Source of the DNA: Acidobacteriota bacterium
GTDB taxonomy: Bacteria > Acidobacteriota > Aminicenantia > Aminicenantales > Saccharicenantaceae
Direction of reading: 5' to 3'
Length of the DNA: 64,000 nt
Assembly: GCA_039683095.1 (NCBI GenBank)
Contig: JBDKSB010000012.1
Location: 92,293-156,292, forward strand
This document shows, in pieces, positions 55,002 through 64,000 of the stretch; within the stretch, counting starts at the first letter, position 1, and the number at the start of each line of letters is the position of its first letter. The notes beneath the pieces are model-generated. The model did no database searches, was not told the DNA's origin, and saw nothing but the letters and a program-made list of their open reading frames with translations. A program made the translations under genes and the position numbers.

Positions 55002-56024
55002 ATGGAGGTTGACATGCGTTGCTGCTCACGCCGCGCGGCCGTCCTCGCGGCGGCTGTCGCTCTGGCCTTCGCCTGCGCCCTGACGGCCGCCCCGCCGCTC
55101 GCGGCCCAGGAGAACATCGGCCGCGGCCGGATCACCGGCCAGGTCGTCGACGAGACGGGCCAGCCACTGGCCGGGGCGAAGATCGTGGTCCAGATCGTCG
55201 ACGGGACGACCCGGCTCGAAGGGATGTCGGACAAGAAGGGCCGCTTCGCCGTGGCCGGCATGGGCACGGGACGGTGGCGCGTCACGGCGACCCTCGAAGG
55301 CCATGCCGACTCGTTCGTCGAGATGTCCATCAGCCAGGTCCGGCCCAATCCGGCCGTCACGCTGACGCTGAAGAGCGCCGGCGGCCGGGGGTTCCAGGCC
55401 GACCCCGAGAGCCTGGCCGCCCTCGACCGGGCCACCGCCCTCGAAAAGGAGGGCCGGCTCGACGAGGCCCTGGCCGAGCTCGAGGGCTTCCTTCGGAAGT
55501 ACCCGGACATCTTCCAGGTCCGGACCAACCTCGGCGCCATCCGCCTCGAGAAGGGCGACCTGGCCGGCGCCGAAGCCGAGTTCCGGGCCGTCCTGGACGC
55601 GACCGCCGGGGCGGCGGGCCAGCTGCCCAAGGACAAGGCCTCGGCCGCCCGCGCCTTGACCGGCCTGGGCGAGGTCGCGCTCAAGAAGGACGACCTCGGG
55701 ACCGCGGTCCGGTCCTTCAGCGACGCCCTGGCCCTCTCGCCCGACGACGAGGCCGCGGCCTACAACGTCGGCGAGATCCTGTTCTCGAACCAGAGGATCG
55801 ACGAGGCCATCAGCTACTTTGAAATGGCCATCCGGATCAACAAGGATTGGCCCCGGCCCTATCACAAGCTCGGGTTCGTCCATCTCAACAAGGGCGAATA
55901 CGACCAGGCCCTCGAGTTCTTCCGTAAGTTCCTCGAGCTCGACCCCGAGGGCCCGGAGGCGCCCGCCGTCAAGAACGTCATGGAGGCCATTGCCAAGATG
56001 AAAAAGTCCGGAGAGCCCCGATGA
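55002..56024 (+). CDS. Secreted CarbopepD_reg-like domain plus TPR protein
   Basis: GRITGQVVDETGQPLAGAKIVV...DKKGRF, then TPR units. Start may be 55014. Confidence 0.6.
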   Translation: MEVDMRCCSRRAAVLAAAVALAFACALTAAPPLAAQENIGRGRITGQVVDETGQPLAGAKIVVQIVDGTTRLEGMSDKKGRFAVAGMGTGRWRVTATLEGHADSFVEMSISQVRPNPAVTLTLKSAGGRGFQADPESLAALDRATALEKEGRLDEALAELEGFLRKYPDIFQVRTNLGAIRLEKGDLAGAEAEFRAVLDATAGAAGQLPKDKASAARALTGLGEVALKKDDLGTAVRSFSDALALSPDDEAAAYNVGEILFSNQRIDEAISYFEMAIRINKDWPRPYHKLGFVHLNKGEYDQALEFFRKFLELDPEGPEAPAVKNVMEAIAKMKKSGEPR

Positions 56025-57709
56025 TCGCCGGGGGATCCTTTGTCCGCCGGGCGGCCGGTCCGGCCGCCGTCCTCCTCCTCGGCCTGTCGGCCGCCTGCGC
56101 CGGGAGCCGGCCGGTCGGTCCGGGCGACGTCGTGGCCGGCCGGGCCATGGTCGCCTCGGCCCACCCCGCCGCCACGGCCGTCGGCCTCGAGATCCTCAAG
56201 AAGGGCGGCAACGCCGTCGATGCCGCCGTGGCCACGGCTTTCGCCCTGAGCATGGCCGAGCCGAACGCCTCGGGCGTCGGGGGCGGCGGCTTCATGATCA
56301 TCAAGATGGCCGGCCAGCCCGGGGCGGTCATGATCGATTACCGGGAGACGGCCCCCCGCAACGCGACGCCGGAATATTACTACGGGGCGGGCCCGTCCTT
56401 CGACGCCCGGACGGCCGAGGGGCCGGACGCGGTCGGCGTGCCCGGGCTGGTCGCCGGCGCCGCCCTGGCCCTGGACAAGTACGGCACGATGAGCCTGGCC
56501 CGGGTCCTCGAACCGGCCATCCGGCTCTGCCGGGAGGGCGTCACGGTCAGCCCGAAGCTCAACGGGATGATCGTCGAGAACATGGAAAAGATCCAGAAAT
56601 ACCCGGCCGCGGCGGCCATCTACCTGCCGGACGGCCTGCCGGCCGAGCCAGGGGCCGTGCTTCGCAACGAGGACCTGGCCGTGACGCTGGAGAGGATCGC
56701 GGCCGGCGGGCCGCGCGTCTTCTACGAAGGCCCGACGGCCGAGGCTGTCGCCGCCGAGCTCCGGCGGCTGGGCGGGGTCATGGAGGCCGCGGACCTAGCC
56801 GGCTACCGGGCCAAGCTCCGGACACCCGTCACCGGGACCTACCGCGGCTACGAGATCCTGTCGGCGGCGCCGCCGACGGGCGGCGGCACCCACCTCGTCG
56901 AGCTCCTGAACATCATCGAGGGCTTCGACGTGAAAAGCATGGGTCCGGGGAGCGCCCGGCTCATCCACGTCCTGGCCGAGGCCATGAAGATGATCTACGC
57001 CGACAAGGCCGTCAATTCCGGCGACCCCGACGTTTTCGACATCCCCGTGGCCGCACTGACCGACAAGGCCTACGCCGCCAGGCTGCGGGACCGGATCGTC
57101 GAGGCGAAGGCCCGCTTCGATTACGCCCCGCCTTCGCTCGTCGGCAGGGAGAGCGAGAGCACCTCCCACCTGTCCGTCGCCGACGAGAAGGGCAACGTCG
57201 TCGCCCTGACCCAGAGCATCAACAGCTTCTTCGGCTCGGGCGTCGTCGTCCCCGGCACGGGCATCATCCTCAACAATCACCTGGCTGATTTCGACAGCCA
57301 GGCCGGCGGCCCGAACGCCATCGGCCCGGGCCGGCGCCCGGCCAGCAGCATCGCCCCGACGGTGGTCTGCCGGTCCGGGAAGCCGGTCCTGGTCCTGGGC
57401 TCGCCCGGCGCGGCCCGGATCGTTTCGGCCCTGGCCCAGATCGTCATCAACTTCGTCGATTTCGGCATGGGCCTGGACGAAGCCATCGAGGCGCCGCGGG
57501 TGCACTGCCTGACAAAAACCCTGGCCGTCGAGGGGCGCATCCCCGGCGAGGTCGTCAAGACGCTCGAGTCCTGGGGGCACAAGGTCAAGGTCTATCCGGA
57601 CTGGGACAACTATTTCGGGGGAGCCCAGGGGATCTTTCTCGACGCCCGGGCCGGGAGGATCTGCGGCGCGGCCGACTCCCGCCGGGACGGCGCGGCCGCG
57701 GGCTATTGA
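56021..57709 (+). CDS. ggt: Gamma-glutamyltranspeptidase
   Basis: Signal peptide. Autocleavage and nucleophile site TSHLSVADEKGNVVALTQSIN. GGT-family small-subunit motifs. Confidence 0.9.
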   Translation: MIAGGSFVRRAAGPAAVLLLGLSAACAGSRPVGPGDVVAGRAMVASAHPAATAVGLEILKKGGNAVDAAVATAFALSMAEPNASGVGGGGFMIIKMAGQPGAVMIDYRETAPRNATPEYYYGAGPSFDARTAEGPDAVGVPGLVAGAALALDKYGTMSLARVLEPAIRLCREGVTVSPKLNGMIVENMEKIQKYPAAAAIYLPDGLPAEPGAVLRNEDLAVTLERIAAGGPRVFYEGPTAEAVAAELRRLGGVMEAADLAGYRAKLRTPVTGTYRGYEILSAAPPTGGGTHLVELLNIIEGFDVKSMGPGSARLIHVLAEAMKMIYADKAVNSGDPDVFDIPVAALTDKAYAARLRDRIVEAKARFDYAPPSLVGRESESTSHLSVADEKGNVVALTQSINSFFGSGVVVPGTGIILNNHLADFDSQAGGPNAIGPGRRPASSIAPTVVCRSGKPVLVLGSPGAARIVSALAQIVINFVDFGMGLDEAIEAPRVHCLTKTLAVEGRIPGEVVKTLESWGHKVKVYPDWDNYFGGAQGIFLDARAGRICGAADSRRDGAAAGY

Positions 57710-57737
57710 GATCTCGAAACGAACGGAGGCTGATATC

Positions 57738-58763
57738 ATGAAAAGATCGACGGCTTCGATCCTGACGCTTTTCGCGGCCCTGGCCGCGTTCTCCTGCGCC
57801 AAACCGGCGAAAAGCCGCGAGGCCCTGATCGAGGAGGTCCTGTTAAAGAAGCAGGACGTCACCATCGTGGTCACGGACTCGGGACTGGGCGGGTTGTCGG
57901 TCGCGGCCGACATCGCCGCCCGGCTGCCGGGCAGCGGCGTCTTTCGCCGGGCCCGCATCGTTTTCTACAACGCCCTCTTCGACAACCTCGGCTACAACGG
58001 CTTGGCCTCCGAAGCCGAGAAGGACCGCATCTTCGACGTCGTTCTCCGGGCCATGAAAAAGCGCTACCGGCCCGACATCCTGCTCATCGCCTGCAACACC
58101 CTGTCGGTCGTCTACGACCGGACGGCCTTCTCCCGAAAAGCGCCCTTCCCGGTGGTCGGCATCGTCGATACGGGCGTCGACCTCATCGCCCGGCAATTCG
58201 AAAAGACCCCCGGGGCCACGGCCATCCTCTTCGGGACGAAGACCACGATCGAGAACGAAGCGCACAAGAAGGCCCTCGTGGCCCGGGGGTTCCCGGCCGA
58301 ACGGATCGTCGGCCAGGCCTGCCACAAGCTGGCCGGGGCGATCGAGCGGGGCATCGCGACGGAGGAGACGGTGGGTTACATCCGCCGGTTCGTGGACGAG
58401 GCCCTGGCCAAGACCGGCCCCGCCGCCGGGCCCCTGTTCGCCAGCTTCAACTGCACCCACTACGGCTACGCCCGGCAGCAGTTCGCCGAGGCCTTCGCCG
58501 CGGCCGGGCGCCCGGGGATCGAGCTCCTCGATCCCAACCCGCTCATGGGCGACGTCCTCTTCCGGCCGGCCTATCTCCACAGGCATCCGCGGACTGAGGT
58601 GGCCGTCGAGGTCGTCTCCAAGCTGGAGATCACCGAGCAGGAACGCGGGGCCATCGGGCCGCTCCTCGAAGCGGTCTCCCCGGCCGTGGCCGCGGCCTTC
58701 CGGAACTACACCCTCGACCCGAAGCTCTTCGAGGTCGCCTTCGAGCGGCCGAAGAAGAAATAG
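57738..58763 (+). CDS. Exported glutamate-racemase homologue (Asp/Glu racemase superfamily) with lipoprotein signal
   Basis: Signal and lipobox MKRSTASILTLFAALAAFSC. VTDSGLGGLSV (MurI DSGxGG), ILLIACNTLS (catalytic Cys1), FNCTHYGY (catalytic Cys2 CTHY). Confidence 0.65.
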   Translation: MKRSTASILTLFAALAAFSCAKPAKSREALIEEVLLKKQDVTIVVTDSGLGGLSVAADIAARLPGSGVFRRARIVFYNALFDNLGYNGLASEAEKDRIFDVVLRAMKKRYRPDILLIACNTLSVVYDRTAFSRKAPFPVVGIVDTGVDLIARQFEKTPGATAILFGTKTTIENEAHKKALVARGFPAERIVGQACHKLAGAIERGIATEETVGYIRRFVDEALAKTGPAAGPLFASFNCTHYGYARQQFAEAFAAAGRPGIELLDPNPLMGDVLFRPAYLHRHPRTEVAVEVVSKLEITEQERGAIGPLLEAVSPAVAAAFRNYTLDPKLFEVAFERPKKK

Positions 58764-58778
58764 GACTCCGGGCGCCGG

Positions 58779-60578
58779 TCAGCGGCCGAGGACCTTCCCG
58801 GCCAGCGTCCCGGTGAAATTCCCGCCGTCGAGGACCATCCGGCCGTTGATGAGGAGATGGCGGACCCCCCGGCTGAGCCGGTGCGGGGCCGAGATCGAGG
58901 ACGGCACGGCGATCCCCTTGAGGTCGAGGACGACGATGTCGGCCGCCGCGCCCTCGGCGATCCGCCCCCGGTCTGGCCAGTTCATGATATCGGCCGGGAG
59001 CGACGTCTGGGAGCGGATGGCCTGGGCCAGCGTCAGGACCTTGCGTTCCAGGGCGTATCTCTGGATCTTGTAGAGGAACGTCGAGTAGGAGCGGGGATGC
59101 GGCCGGTCGACCCCGTAGACGGGCAGGATGCCGTCGCTGCCCGTGGCCACGTAGTCCTTCTTCATGACGGCCTCGATGTCCGGCTCGCACATGTTGAAGG
59201 GGACGGCCAGCGTCCCGGCCAGCTCCAGCTCGATGGCCGTGTCGACGACCGTCTTGTTCCGCAGGGCGGCGACGGCCGCCAGGGACTTCCCTTCGATCGA
59301 CTCGTCGGCCGCGATGGCGATGATCATGTTCTCCGCGCCGACATCGTCGTAATAGGCCTGGATGGCGGCGCGGATGGCCCGGGCCTCCTCCGGCTGGCCC
59401 AGGCGCCGGACGAAGAGGGCCCGTTCCCTCTCGTTCGCGGCTCCCCGCGTCCGTCCCTCGAGTACGGCCGCCGCGACGAGGTCGACGAAGCGGTCCCGCG
59501 GCAGGCCGTTCAGGAAAGCGAGGTGTGGCGGCGACAGCGGGACCCAGGGCGTGCACTTGGCGTAAAGCTCGAGCAGCTCGGCGTCGCGGATATGGGCGAA
59601 GGCCCGGCTCAGATCGGCCGTCCCGAGGCCCGGCTCGCCGCCGCGCCAGGCCTCGGCCGGAACGAGCGGCGAGTACGGCTCGGTGTTGGAGAAGCGGTAG
59701 GGGTATTGGTCGGCCGTGATCTTGAGCCCGCGGGCCCGGGCCGCCTCGATCAGGCGCATGGCCTCCCCGACCAGGCCCCAGTTGGCCCGGCGCATGACCT
59801 TGAAGTGGGAGATGTTGGCCCGCACGCCGGCCCCTTCGGCTATGGCGATGCACTCCCCGACGGCCTCGAGCAAACGGCCACGCTCGTTGCGGACGTGGGA
59901 GTGGTAGATGCCGCCGTATGGGGCGATGACCTTGACCAGCTCGAGGATCTCGTCGGTCTTGGCGTAAAGGCCGGGCCGGTAGATGAGCCCGGTCGAGAGG
60001 CCGACGGCGCCCTGCTCCATGGCCTCTTTGACCAGGGCTTTCATCCGCCCGAGCTCGTCCGGCGTCGGCGCCCGGTCCTCCATGCCCATGACGAGCTGGC
60101 GGACCTGGCCATGGCCGACGAGCAGGGCGATGTTCAGGCCGACGCCCTCGTCCGTGAAGCGCCGGATCTGGTCGGAGGCCTTCTCGAAGATGGGCCAGGC
60201 GCTCGAGCCGCACTGCCCGGCGACGAGCGTCGTCACGCCCTGGGTCAGGTAGCCCAGCGGGGCCCGGTGCTCGGGAAAGACCAGGGCCCGGTCGACGTGG
60301 GTGTGGAGGTCGATGAAGCCCGGCGCGACGTAGAGGCCGCGGGCATCGATCGTCCGGGCGGCCGGGCCACGTAGGGACGGCGCGACCCGGACGATGCGGC
60401 CGTCCTTGACCGCGATGTCGGCCCGGAAGGCCGGCTTCAGCGACCCGTCGAGGACGAGGCCGTTCTTGATGAGGATGTCGAAGTCCGGGCCGGCGGCGGC
60501 CAGCCGGTTCGGGGCGCCGGCGGCCAGGCCGAGCGCCAGGGCCAGGAGGACGGAGAGGCGAACGGGGCGGCGTTCCAT
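58779..60578 (-). CDS. N-acyl-D-amino-acid deacylase (D-aminoacylase) family amidohydrolase, secreted
   Basis: Start MERRPVRLSVLLALALGLAAG (signal peptide). GFIDLHTHVD metal-binding motif. 599 aa. The upstream part of the track ORF is artefact. Confidence 0.8.
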   Translation of the reverse strand: MERRPVRLSVLLALALGLAAGAPNRLAAAGPDFDILIKNGLVLDGSLKPAFRADIAVKDGRIVRVAPSLRGPAARTIDARGLYVAPGFIDLHTHVDRALVFPEHRAPLGYLTQGVTTLVAGQCGSSAWPIFEKASDQIRRFTDEGVGLNIALLVGHGQVRQLVMGMEDRAPTPDELGRMKALVKEAMEQGAVGLSTGLIYRPGLYAKTDEILELVKVIAPYGGIYHSHVRNERGRLLEAVGECIAIAEGAGVRANISHFKVMRRANWGLVGEAMRLIEAARARGLKITADQYPYRFSNTEPYSPLVPAEAWRGGEPGLGTADLSRAFAHIRDAELLELYAKCTPWVPLSPPHLAFLNGLPRDRFVDLVAAAVLEGRTRGAANERERALFVRRLGQPEEARAIRAAIQAYYDDVGAENMIIAIAADESIEGKSLAAVAALRNKTVVDTAIELELAGTLAVPFNMCEPDIEAVMKKDYVATGSDGILPVYGVDRPHPRSYSTFLYKIQRYALERKVLTLAQAIRSQTSLPADIMNWPDRGRIAEGAAADIVVLDLKGIAVPSSISAPHRLSRGVRHLLINGRMVLDGGNFTGTLAGKVLGR

Positions 60579-60586
60579 CGAACCCC

Positions 60587-61447
60587 CTATTTCTTCAGCG
60601 GGACGATCCCGGCCATCTCGCCGATGACGTTGACCAGATCCTTGTCCGAAGGCACGATGATCTTGGCGTTGGCTTGAAGCGCGGTCTCCAGGGCCTGGAG
60701 GCGGCGCAGGATCTGGGCGTTTCCGACGAAGTACTTCTCGGCCGCCTCGTTGACCAGCCGGATGGCCTCGGCCTCGCCCTGAGCCTCGAGGATCTTGGCC
60801 TGGCGGACGCCCTCGGCCTTCTTGATCTCGGCCCGGCGGTCGCCGTCGGCCGACGTTTCCTTGGCCGTGGCGAAGTCGATGGCGGCGATCTTCTCGTTCT
60901 CGGCCTTGACGACCTTGTTCATCGTCTCCTGGACGTCCTTGGGCGGGTCGATCTCCTTGAGCTCGGTCCGGACGATGTCGATGCCCCAGCGCGCCGTCTC
61001 TGTGGACAGGGTCTTGAGCAGCTCCTCGTTGATCTTGCCCCGCTCGCTGTTGGCCGATTTCAGGGTCAGGGTGCCGATGATGTTGCGCAGGGTCGTCCGG
61101 GCCAGGTTGACGATCTGCCACTGGAAGTTGTTGACGTGGTACTGGGAGGCCTTGACGCTGGCCTCGTCCTCCTTGACCCGGAAGTAGACCTGGGCGTCGA
61201 CGCGGGCGTTGAGGTTGTCGTTGGTGATGATCTCCTGGGGCGCGGCGTCGACCATCATCTCGGTGATGTTGATCTGGCGCAGCTGTTCGACGACCGGGAT
61301 GACCCAGTTGAATCCGGGCGTCGCGAAACGTTGGTACTTGCCCAGCCGCTCGACCAGGCCGCGGTGGGTCGGCCGGACGATGCGGATGCCAAGAAGAAAG
61401 ATGAAGACGACCAGGCCGGCGATCCAAAGATAAACAGCCATTTGCAT
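60587..61447 (-). CDS. SPFH/Band-7 (stomatin/prohibitin-like) membrane protein
   Basis: N-terminal TM helix. SPFH core and C-terminal coiled-coil/Ala-rich region. Confidence 0.85.
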   Translation of the reverse strand: MQMAVYLWIAGLVVFIFLLGIRIVRPTHRGLVERLGKYQRFATPGFNWVIPVVEQLRQINITEMMVDAAPQEIITNDNLNARVDAQVYFRVKEDEASVKASQYHVNNFQWQIVNLARTTLRNIIGTLTLKSANSERGKINEELLKTLSTETARWGIDIVRTELKEIDPPKDVQETMNKVVKAENEKIAAIDFATAKETSADGDRRAEIKKAEGVRQAKILEAQGEAEAIRLVNEAAEKYFVGNAQILRRLQALETALQANAKIIVPSDKDLVNVIGEMAGIVPLKK

Positions 61448-61523
61448 TTGTCTCCTCCCTGCGATGACGCGCTTTTCAGACTTTATCGCCGCCCTTCCGG
61501 AAAGTCAACCAAGAGGGGGTCGG

Positions 61524-62240
61524 CTACATCTTCCAGGTGCCGGCGACGATGAGGTTCGCCCCGGTCATCGCCGCCGCCTTGTCCGAGGCGCAGTAGGCCA
61601 CAGCCCCGGCGACGTCCTCGAAGGTTCCGATCTGGGACTCCGAGACGTTCTTCAGGGAAGGCATGGCGCCGCCCCGGATGAGCCCGGGCGAGACCATGTT
61701 GATCGTGATCCCGTTCACGATCTCGGCCGCTGCGGCGGTCCGCGTCAGGGTGAGCAGGCCGGTCTTGGCCACGGCGTAGGCGGCGATGGTGGGGAAGGCG
61801 CCGAGATGCTCGGCCCGGCTGTAGCCGATGTTGACGATCCTCCCCCACTTCCGCCTGCGCATGCCGGGCAGGGCCGCCTTCAGGCAGAAGTAAGGCCCGA
61901 GCAGGTTGCCCCGGAGGGCCTTGTCCCAATCGGCGACCTCCAGCTGGTCCCAGGGCTTGACCAGGAAGGGCCCGACGTTGTTGACCAGGATGTCGACCCG
62001 GGCGAACCGCTCCTCGACCTTCTTGATCAGGCCGGCGGCCTGGGCCTTCTTGGTCAGGTCGGCCCGGAAGACGGCCGAGAGCTTGCCCTTCTCGCGGATG
62101 GCCGCGGCCAGCTCCTGGGCCTCCTCGCGCCTGCTGAAATAGTGGACGGCCACGCCGGAGACGTCCTCGGCCAGCCGCAGGGCGATGGCTCGGCCGATGC
62201 CGCGGCTGGCCCCGGTGACGAGGGCGATGCGCAGGCTCAT
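61524..62240 (-). CDS. Short-chain dehydrogenase/reductase (FabG-like)
   Basis: TGASRGIG cofactor motif, NNVG, catalytic YSRAEHLGAFPTIAAYAVAK (YxxxK). Confidence 0.85.
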   Translation of the reverse strand: MSLRIALVTGASRGIGRAIALRLAEDVSGVAVHYFSRREEAQELAAAIREKGKLSAVFRADLTKKAQAAGLIKKVEERFARVDILVNNVGPFLVKPWDQLEVADWDKALRGNLLGPYFCLKAALPGMRRRKWGRIVNIGYSRAEHLGAFPTIAAYAVAKTGLLTLTRTAAAAEIVNGITINMVSPGLIRGGAMPSLKNVSESQIGTFEDVAGAVAYCASDKAAAMTGANLIVAGTWKM

Positions 62241-62244
62241 GGCG

Positions 62245-63771
62245 TCACGCCAGGGTCCCGACGGCCTTCTCGACCGCGTCCAGGATCTCCCCGGACGCCA
62301 CGACCTCCTTGAGCGCGTTGATGTCGTTGTAAAGGGGCCGGTCCTCTTCGAGGCGCGCGACGTGCTTGCGGATGACGTCGTAGGCGGCCTGGGTGCCCTT
62401 CCCGGGCCGGACCGGCTTGCGGAAATCGAGGGCCTGGGCCCCGGCCATGAACTCGATGGCCAGGACGGCCTGGGCGTTGTCGAGGATCTGGCGGGTCTTG
62501 AGGGCCGTGGTCATGCCCATGCTGACGAAGTCCTCCTGGTCCGCGGCGGCCGGGATGGAGCCGGTGGCGGCCGGATGGGACAGGACGCGGTTCTCGCAGA
62601 CGAGGGCCCCGGCCGTGTACTGGCTCAGCATCAGGCCCGAGAACATGCCCGCGCCCTTGGTCAGGAAGGCCGGCAGGCCGGCGCTGAGATGCGGGTTCAT
62701 CAGCCGGTTGTGGCGGCGCTCGGACAGGACCGCGATCGTGGTCACGGCGGTGCCGAGGAGCTCGAGCGGGAAGGCCATGGGCACGCCCTGGAAATTGGCC
62801 CCGGTCAGGACGAGCTGCTCGTCGGGGAAGAAGACCGGGTTGTCGGCCGCGCCGTTGATCTCGATCTCGATCATGTAGCGGGCCCACTTGAGGGCGTCGC
62901 GGCCGGCGCCGACGACCTGGGGTGTGCTGCGAAGGCTGTAGGCGTCCTGGACCTTCTTGCCCGGCTGGGCCAGGAGCTCGCTTCCCTCGGTGATGCGGCG
63001 GACGTTGGCCGCCGATTCCAGCGCGCCGGGATAGCCGCGGGTCTTGTGGAGGCGCTCGTCGTAGGCCTTCATGTTGGCGTTGAGGGCCTCGAGGGTCATG
63101 GCCGCGGCGATCTCGGAAGCCTTGAGCCAGCGGTGGACGTCGTAAACGGTCAGCGCGGCCATGCCGGCGATGACGTTCGAGCCGTTGATCATGGCCAGGC
63201 CGTCCCGGGCGTGGAGGACGAGCGGCGTGATGCCGGCCCGCTTGAGGGCCTCGGCCCCGGGCAGGCGCTCGCCCTTGTAGAAAGCCTCGCCCTCGCCCAT
63301 CGGGACCAGGGCCATCTGGGCCATCGGCGAGAGGTCACCGCAGGCGCCGACCGAGCCCTTCTCGCACATGACCGGGGTGACGCCCTTGTTGAGGAGCTCA
63401 GCCAGGGTCTCGGTGACGACCGGCCGGAGCCCGGAGTGGCCGTGGCAGTGGCAGTTGATGCGGCCGAGGATGGCCGCCCGGACGATGTCTTCGGGCATGG
63501 GCTGGCCGTAGCCCGCGGCATGGCTGTAGATGAGGTAGCGCTGGAACTTCTCGACCTGCTCCTGGGTCAGGACGACGTTGGCCAGCTCGCCGATGCCCGT
63601 ATTGACGCCGTACATGATCTCTTTCTTCTGGATCTTGTCCTCGAGCAGGGCCCGGCATTTCTCGATGCGCTTCTTGGCCTCCGGGTCCAGGGCGACGGGG
63701 ACGCGGCCGCGCGCCACCTCGACGACCCTCTCGACGGTCAGACCCGTGCCGGTCAGGTTGATAGCCATGGG
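62245..63771 (-). CDS. Aromatic/histidine ammonia-lyase family (HAL/PAL/TAL) enzyme with Ala-Cys-Gly at the MIO position
   Basis: Start MAINLTGTGLTVERV. GSVGACGDLSPMAQ aligns to the HAL GSVGASGDLAPLAH. Codon TGC confirmed on the DNA at ~63335. Confidence 0.8.
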   Translation of the reverse strand, partial: PMAINLTGTGLTVERVVEVARGRVPVALDPEAKKRIEKCRALLEDKIQKKEIMYGVNTGIGELANVVLTQEQVEKFQRYLIYSHAAGYGQPMPEDIVRAAILGRINCHCHGHSGLRPVVTETLAELLNKGVTPVMCEKGSVGACGDLSPMAQMALVPMGEGEAFYKGERLPGAEALKRAGITPLVLHARDGLAMINGSNVIAGMAALTVYDVHRWLKASEIAAAMTLEALNANMKAYDERLHKTRGYPGALESAANVRRITEGSELLAQPGKKVQDAYSLRSTPQVVGAGRDALKWARYMIEIEINGAADNPVFFPDEQLVLTGANFQGVPMAFPLELLGTAVTTIAVLSERRHNRLMNPHLSAGLPAFLTKGAGMFSGLMLSQYTAGALVCENRVLSHPAATGSIPAAADQEDFVSMGMTTALKTRQILDNAQAVLAIEFMAGAQALDFRKPVRPGKGTQAAYDVIRKHVARLEEDRPLYNDINALKEVVASGEILDAVEKAVGTLA

Positions 63772-63904
63772 GAGAGCCTCCTCGGAGTGATGGTCAGGAT
63801 CGCGACTCATGGTGAGCCCTATCACTTTAACCGAAGTCCGGGAAGGGGTCAAACCCGGGGGCCGGCTGGCCCGGCCCGGCCGTGTTGCCGTCCGGCGGCC
63901 GCTG

Positions 63905-63918
63905 TGCTATTAATAGCA
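63905..63918. promoter_or_regulatory. Perfect 14-bp palindrome TGCTATTAATAGCA between divergent genes
   Basis: Read directly. Lies between the ammonia-lyase start (63771, minus) and the epimerase start (63955, plus). Confidence 0.4.
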
Positions 63919-63954
63919 TTCTGTATTCGATCGATCGCGAGCGGAGATACGCCG

Positions 63955-64000
63955 ATGACCAAAGAGACCAAGCGCATTCTTATCACGGGCGCGGCCGGAC
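63955..64000 (+). CDS. NAD-dependent epimerase/dehydratase family protein, N-terminal fragment only
   Basis: MTKETKRILITGAAG is the Rossmann start motif GxxGxxG. Truncated by the window end. Confidence 0.5.
   Translation, partial: MTKETKRILITGAAG

Follow-up and report, generated by a model that had tools for sequence, protein, structure and literature searches.

Ala-Cys-Gly in place of Ala-Ser-Gly at the presumed cofactor site of a predicted histidine ammonia-lyase clade from mostly uncultured lineages

The DNA considered here (the window) is a 64,000-nucleotide stretch of contig JBDKSB010000012.1, from an Acidobacteriota bacterium of the Aminicenantales (assembly GCA_039683095.1). Close to its end, on the minus strand, lies a gene for a predicted histidine ammonia-lyase (HAL) in which Cys occupies the place of the Ser that normally gives rise to the cofactor. 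The gene spans positions 62245 to 63768 and encodes 507 residues plus a stop codon, as read from its open reading frame (ORF), its translation, and matches to PF00221 and TIGR01225; its relatives are likewise 507 residues long. The start is the ATG at 63768-63766 (minus strand), positioned 8 nucleotides (nt) past a Shine-Dalgarno sequence, GAGGAGG (63777 to 63783, minus strand), which is kept in relatives. Thus, the end coordinate of 63771 given in the initial annotation included one codon too many. The protein matches the whole PF00221 profile (E = 3.1e-174, positions 1-466 of 466) and 39 relatives of solved structure, the best of which is the HAL of Pseudomonas putida (PpHAL; E = 2.6e-96). 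An identical protein occurs in a Logan assembly (derived from the SRA) and, at NCBI, under the accession MEN6560808.1 with the title "MAG: histidine ammonia-lyase [Acidobacteriota bacterium]", and automated annotation already gives these proteins the name histidine ammonia-lyase.

The tripeptide that yields the 4-methylideneimidazol-5-one (MIO) cofactor is described as X-Ser-Gly, where X is Ala, Ser, Cys, or Thr (PMC9002059), and the Ala-Ser-Gly (ASG) triad has been called "strictly conserved" (PMC3903478). The presumed precursor in the window protein is instead Ala142-Cys143-Gly144 (ACG), encoded by GCC TGC GGT at 63337 to 63345 (minus strand) and located both from the DNA letters and by alignment with PpHAL. 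The initial annotation had reported the peptide GSVGACGDLSP with a TGC codon for its Cys, and both are present (the codon reads "gca" on the plus strand, 63340-63342). It had also placed this Cys where Ser normally stands, which is borne out by the HMMER alignment, in which Cys143 pairs with Ser143 of PpHAL ("kgsvgaCgdl" versus "kgsvgaSgdl"). The departure from a literal X-Ser-Gly motif is confined to the middle residue; the Ala, the Gly, and the flanks are conserved. In the X-Ser-Gly variants it is the first residue that changes while Ser is kept, whereas here the replaced residue is the one that supplies the methylidene carbon.

The Cys is not peculiar to this genome. Relatives were sampled in three ways: as the 120 closest clusters at 90% identity, as the best 80 loci in species-representative (GTDB) genomes, and as 80 metagenome loci, 79 of which have a readable motif; the genome and metagenome collections each hold at least about 590 confirmed relatives, from which these sets of 80 loci were studied. 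Of the 120 closest clusters (80-93% identical to the query), 119 have ACG, and the one ASG cluster, 81% identical to the query, has unchanged flanking residues. Among the genome loci (62-91% identical), 64 of 80 have ACG and 16 have ASG, and among the metagenome loci the numbers are 70 and 9 of 79. Candidatus Aminicenantes is the label of the closest genomes. In the window and the 80 genome loci, the codons at site 143 are TGC (52), TGT (13), AGC (10), TCC (3), TCG (2), and TCA (1), so that residue 143 is exclusively Cys or Ser in these 81 loci of the clade, and neither Ala142 nor Gly144 varies. The idea that a Ser codon was misread or misassembled would have little to recommend it beyond the fact that TGC lies one substitution from TCC or AGC, and its probability is close to nil, since ACG recurs at these frequencies across many independent studies with TGT used as well as TGC. 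The database survey for natural ACG variants suggested in the initial annotation therefore shows ACG to be genuine and natural.

Within the clade, records with ACG carry the labels Aminicenantes, Terriglobales, Sulfotelmatobacter, Thermoplasmata, KSB1, WOR-3, Stahlbacteria, Bacteroidota, Ignavibacteriales, Cloacimonadota, Vulcanimicrobiota, and others, and the ASG members, chiefly Chloroflexi and some Bacteroidales, are scattered among them. Fitch parsimony on a neighbour-joining tree assigns Cys to the root of the clade, with at least six Cys/Ser changes inside it and 10 over the whole 97-sequence tree; these counts are approximate, as the tree has no support values. In this large clade, found mostly in uncultured lineages, Cys thus seems to be ancestral. 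The ASG members use both families of Ser codons, AGY and TCN. Since TGY is the single-step intermediate between the two, a tolerated Cys would give a route from one family to the other.

Farther afield, a pattern match on the best 150 representatives of clusters at 50% identity gives ASG in 122, SSG in 10, ACG in seven, CSG in two, TSG in one, and no match in eight, and in an alignment of 136 full-length representatives with the query 112 sequences have ASG. The four ACG representatives outside the clade of the query take three separate positions in the tree. One of these representative proteins (P0184) was used for a further search, which revealed a second, independent HAL lineage (loci L082-L085); among 120 clusters, 57 have ACG and 63 have ASG. 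Its flank is the canonical GDLAPLAH, it falls with sequences of Silvanigrellales type, and its cultured Fluviispira entries are ASG; hut neighbours were sought around its HAL genes and none was found. ACG thus recurs, with no fewer than two independent lineages of HAL carrying it, and is so far seen only in uncultured organisms. Two other ACG-bearing representatives, P0198 and P0230, have Arg and Leu in place of HAL residues Q277 and Y280 and may constitute a functionally different ACG subfamily. The idea that ACG is a trait of anaerobes only was considered and dropped, because the second lineage groups with Silvanigrellales-type bacteria, which we take to be aerobes; a S143C mutant of PpHAL, which is said to mature in aerobic Escherichia coli, was also weighed in that decision.

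Several lines of evidence bear on which reaction these enzymes catalyse. The window protein scores 583.1 bits against the NCBIfam model for histidine ammonia-lyase PRK09367 (cut-off 524) and 554.1 bits against the hutH equivalog model TIGR01225 (cut-off 539.15), passing both. The corresponding models for related MIO enzymes fall well short: 411 bits for tyrosine 2,3-aminomutase (cut-off 501), 362 bits for D-beta-phenylalanine aminomutase (cut-off 800), 351 bits for the FlxA tyrosine ammonia-lyase (TAL; cut-off 700), and 239 bits for phenylalanine ammonia-lyase (PAL; cut-off 519). The HAL residues reportedly identified through mutagenesis (Rother et al. in 2001, cited in PMC11432326) are Y53, H83, N195, Q277, Y280, R283, F329, and E414. 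Both a pairwise and a 137-sequence alignment indicate that the window protein keeps Y53, S82-H83, N195, Q277, Y280, R283, F329, M382, and E414 of PpHAL, the last as Glu412. The selectivity pair, Ser82-His83, is of the HAL type rather than the His-Leu or Phe-Leu of TAL, PAL, and aminomutases, and a Ser/His pair at this place has been described as the substrate switch of HAL (PMC11432326). In addition, a urocanase gene (verified by Pfam) adjoins the HAL gene in four members of the clade (loci L048, L053, L056, and L076), which are 64-66% identical to the query, ASG-bearing, and Chloroflexi-type; given the close kinship of the four, the adjacency in effect amounts to one observation. Because the HutH cut-offs are passed, the HAL residues and the Ser-His pair are kept, and ASG members stand beside urocanase, we conclude that the clade is one of predicted histidine ammonia-lyases. 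The initial annotation had suggested a TAL, PAL, or aminomutase and had pointed to the H/F selectivity switch as a way to decide; the switch is of the HAL type, and this together with Glu412 and the low scores of the competing models speaks against such a role.

Compared with P. putida HutH (PDB 1B8F, 1GKM), the window protein belongs to the same family, has the same length, aligns end to end, has its tripeptide at the same residues, 142-144, and is identical in the catalytic residues and the selectivity pair. It differs in the middle residue of the tripeptide, in the flanking motifs (MCEKGSVGACGDLSPMAQ in the query versus IPLKGSVGASGDLAPLAH in PpHAL), and in the lack of any detected hutU or hutI neighbour. 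Its residues 105-111 (63445-63465, minus strand) also differ, forming a Cys/His-rich segment, NCHCHGH, where PpHAL has NSLSRGF. The segment varies across the clade, reading, for example, NTHCWGH or NVHAHGN.

Taken together, these observations make it likely that the window protein is a working histidine ammonia-lyase, converting L-histidine to trans-urocanate and ammonia with an MIO made autocatalytically from Ala142-Cys143-Gly144. In the proposed route, the Gly144 nitrogen would attack the Ala142 carbonyl and the backbone would cyclise with loss of water, as usual; the exocyclic methylidene would then come from Cys143 by beta-elimination of H2S, instead of the water lost from Ser. Once mature, the enzyme would not differ in its chemistry from one encoded with Ala-Ser-Gly; it would have ordinary MIO, and Cys and Ser would be interchangeable precursors. 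A partner residue was looked for as well, and no alignment position cleanly tracks the choice of Cys or Ser at 143. The restriction to Ser and Cys, their repeated interchange, the invariance of Ala142, Gly144, and the flanks, and the absence of a co-varying partner all suggest that residue 143 needs only a beta-leaving group. The initial annotation had raised either MIO or a thio-analogue intermediate as the product of ACG. Ordinary MIO fits the pattern of Cys or Ser with fixed Ala142, Gly144, and catalytic residues, and a thio-analogue would explain nothing more.

A laboratory precedent may exist. Langer, Lieber and Retey reportedly found in 1994 that PpHAL with the S143C substitution matured to fully active, wild-type enzyme. 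The substitution and the position are the same as here, with the difference that Cys was there a laboratory mutation and here is natural, conserved, and apparently ancestral.

Some points weigh against the assignment as a MIO-bearing HAL. The reported precedent just described serves as a lead rather than a test. The hutH cut-off is cleared by just 15 bits. The clade has flanks that differ from those of canonical HutH (PMAQ for PLAH, and DQEDF for NQEDH). Finally, urocanase is missing from the surroundings of all 64 ACG genome loci and all 80 metagenome loci, the latter having flanks of only 1.5 kb.

The initial annotation stated that the gene is not in a hut operon, and this holds: when the larger probable genes of the 64-kb window were scanned with Pfam, neither hutU nor hutI appeared, nor did either turn up among called genes with Pfam annotation in the 10 kb past the window end. 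A tblastn search for urocanase over the whole window and the loci gathered gave none at the window or at any ACG locus, and a Pfam scan of 78 ORFs of 500-660 residues near HAL genes gave no recurrent urocanase. Histidine-utilisation neighbours, which support a HAL assignment without strictly defining it, are thus absent from the genes scanned at the window locus. By all-against-all clustering of ORFs, no neighbour family occurs in more than 18 of the 80 genome loci, and the neighbours that do recur (epimerase, SDR, spermidine synthase, SpoIID, and HtrA) reflect synteny among Aminicenantes-type relatives.

The absence of a hut neighbour at every ACG locus examined, the clade-specific PMAQ and DQEDF flanks, and the narrow hutH margin would also fit an enzyme of the same fold that makes MIO from Cys and acts, as a stand-alone lyase apart from the hut pathway, on something other than free L-histidine. 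Candidate substrates would be histidine with a methyl group or some other modification, or a different amino acid, and HAL-like lyases that act on other histidine-derived substrates do exist (bioRxiv 10.64898/2026.04.22.720169). However, the residues with which PpHAL binds the imidazole and the carboxylate are all kept, the TAL, PAL, and aminomutase models are far from their cut-offs, urocanase adjoins ASG members of the same clade, and the known betaine lyases lack the tripeptide altogether. On balance, a substrate other than histidine is considered unlikely.

Those betaine lyases are relevant in a second way. They are MIO-less trimethylammonia-lyases without the tripeptide (bioRxiv 10.64898/2026.04.22.720169), and the existence of such MIO-less members of the family is one reason to consider that Cys143 might be retained as such, with no MIO formed. 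The enzyme would then use chemistry based on the thiol or another feature, be under redox control through Cys143, or have low or no lyase activity. The larger number of cysteines in ACG than in ASG members (a mean of 7.5 versus 4.75) points the same way. A retained Cys is nevertheless quite improbable, given that Ala142, Gly144, and the GSVG and GDL flanks needed for cyclisation are strictly conserved, that Ser, the canonical dehydroalanine precursor, is the sole alternative seen, with at least six switches, and that no position co-varies cleanly with the choice. The reported maturation of S143C PpHAL speaks against it too. The query has its tripeptide, unlike the MIO-less lyases. It does match ergothionase (PDB 6S7J; E = 4e-59), which has a HAL-like fold, and the ergothionase type takes imidazole-type substrates. 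Yet this match is well behind that to HAL (2.6e-96), and the query keeps the Ala, the Gly, and the flanks, changing only Ser to Cys.

A related proposal is that Cys is no neutral stand-in for Ser: maturation might be distinct (by release of H2S, by greater speed, or by redox gating at Cys143), or a retained thiol might support non-MIO chemistry. We give this only a slim chance. If true, it would mean a functionally separate, hut-independent clade of lyases in mostly uncultured lineages of largely anoxic habitats. The preferred reading remains a histidine ammonia-lyase with ordinary MIO derived from Cys.

Immediately past the HAL gene is a gene for a short-chain dehydrogenase (SDR; 61524 to 62240, minus strand; PF13561, PF00106), which starts 4 nt beyond the HAL stop codon and probably shares a transcript with HAL. 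Its best NCBIfam match, over the full length, is a TmpR-type dihydropteridine/dihydrofolate reductase (221 bits, below the cut-off of 325); a FolM-like reductase whose substrate is uncertain is the best reading. Among the surveyed loci, HAL and SDR genes adjoin only in Aminicenantes-type relatives, which bear Aminicenantes or generic labels. A consensus scan found two promoter-like sites, compared with 0.3 expected by chance. The first, TTGACC-17 nt-TAAAGT (63824 to 63852, minus strand), precedes the HAL-SDR pair; of the close loci, about half (L001-L005) visibly keep both hexamers, and most of L001-L011 keep the second. The other has the same TTGAC(C/T)-17 nt-TAAAGT pair (61480 to 61508, minus strand) and precedes an SPFH gene and the secreted amidohydrolase gene that begins 8 nt past it (58779-60578, minus strand). 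The neighbours had been taken in the initial annotation as a hint of secondary metabolism. That hint finds no support, as the SDR is FolM/TmpR-like, its adjacency is limited to Aminicenantes-type relatives, and a separate promoter-like site precedes the SPFH gene.

Between the HAL promoter-like site and the HAL gene lies a short reading frame encoding MSRDPDHHSEEALP (63769 to 63810, minus strand), which begins about 13 nt past the -10 box and extends into the start of HAL. Loci L001, L002, L004-L006, L009, L086, L088-L090, L092, L093, and L095 have such a frame as well. The frame is that of HAL in the window and L095; in the others examined it is out of frame and overlaps the HAL start. In the closest subclade the encoded peptide is His-rich, as in the window, L005 (MHHGSDHHHSEEAIP), and L086 (MNRDPHHRHSQED), and in a neighbouring subclade it is rich in Lys and Arg. 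The upstream reading frame could be a histidine-sensing leader whose translation is coupled to that of HAL. A Rfam scan of 60000-64000 gave no match.

On the other side of the intergenic region is the divergent gene of an NAD-dependent epimerase/dehydratase-family protein, of which only the 5' end (63955 to 64000, plus strand) falls before the window end. The full gene, seen in L081, encodes 325 residues and matches PF01370, with D-erythronate dehydrogenase as a weak best match. The 14-bp palindrome that the initial annotation noted between the divergent genes, TGCTATTAATAGCA (63905 to 63918, read by eye), is indeed perfect and has no loop. It is not conserved as a palindrome, though: relatives keep only TAYTTATAGCACAG, which reads TGnTATAAnT toward the epimerase gene. 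The conserved half thus resembles an extended -10 box and is more likely to be a promoter element than an operator.

Farther from the HAL gene are a gamma-glutamyltranspeptidase (56021-57709, plus strand), a lipoprotein-like homologue of Asp/Glu racemases that carries a signal peptide (57738-58763, plus strand), and the amidohydrolase mentioned above (58779-60578), which is D-aminoacylase-like. The three genes (56021-60578) look like a group for periplasmic salvage of peptides and D-amino acids. Many long ORFs across the window overlap real genes, either antisense to them or in a different frame, for example at 58630-60213 (minus strand), 58857-60374 (plus strand), and 60674-61552 (plus strand). 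Such ORFs are artefacts of the high G+C content of the window (66%) and are told from real genes by the G+C content at third codon positions.

The literature searched contained no natural X-Cys-Gly MIO enzyme, although absence there is not proof, and a search for work on histidine or urocanate metabolism in Aminicenantes found nothing relevant. What is known in advance here is the enzyme family and its reaction; what differs is the natural precursor residue, described elsewhere as an invariant Ser, and the mature cofactor is probably unchanged. Given the reported S143C mutant, the ACG finding is no surprise of principle. Since the mature enzyme is probably ordinary, the biological impact would be modest. 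The variant nonetheless has practical consequences for the family, in that motif filters demanding Ser-Gly would miss or mis-flag ACG enzymes. It also offers natural material for studying how the leaving group (H2S versus water) affects the maturation of MIO, and a case in which Cys would serve as a single-step bridge between the AGY and TCN families of Ser codons at an essential site. The finding places a natural Cys at the cofactor site in hundreds of species-level genomes and in two or more independent lineages of HAL, with Cys and Ser seeming to switch freely.

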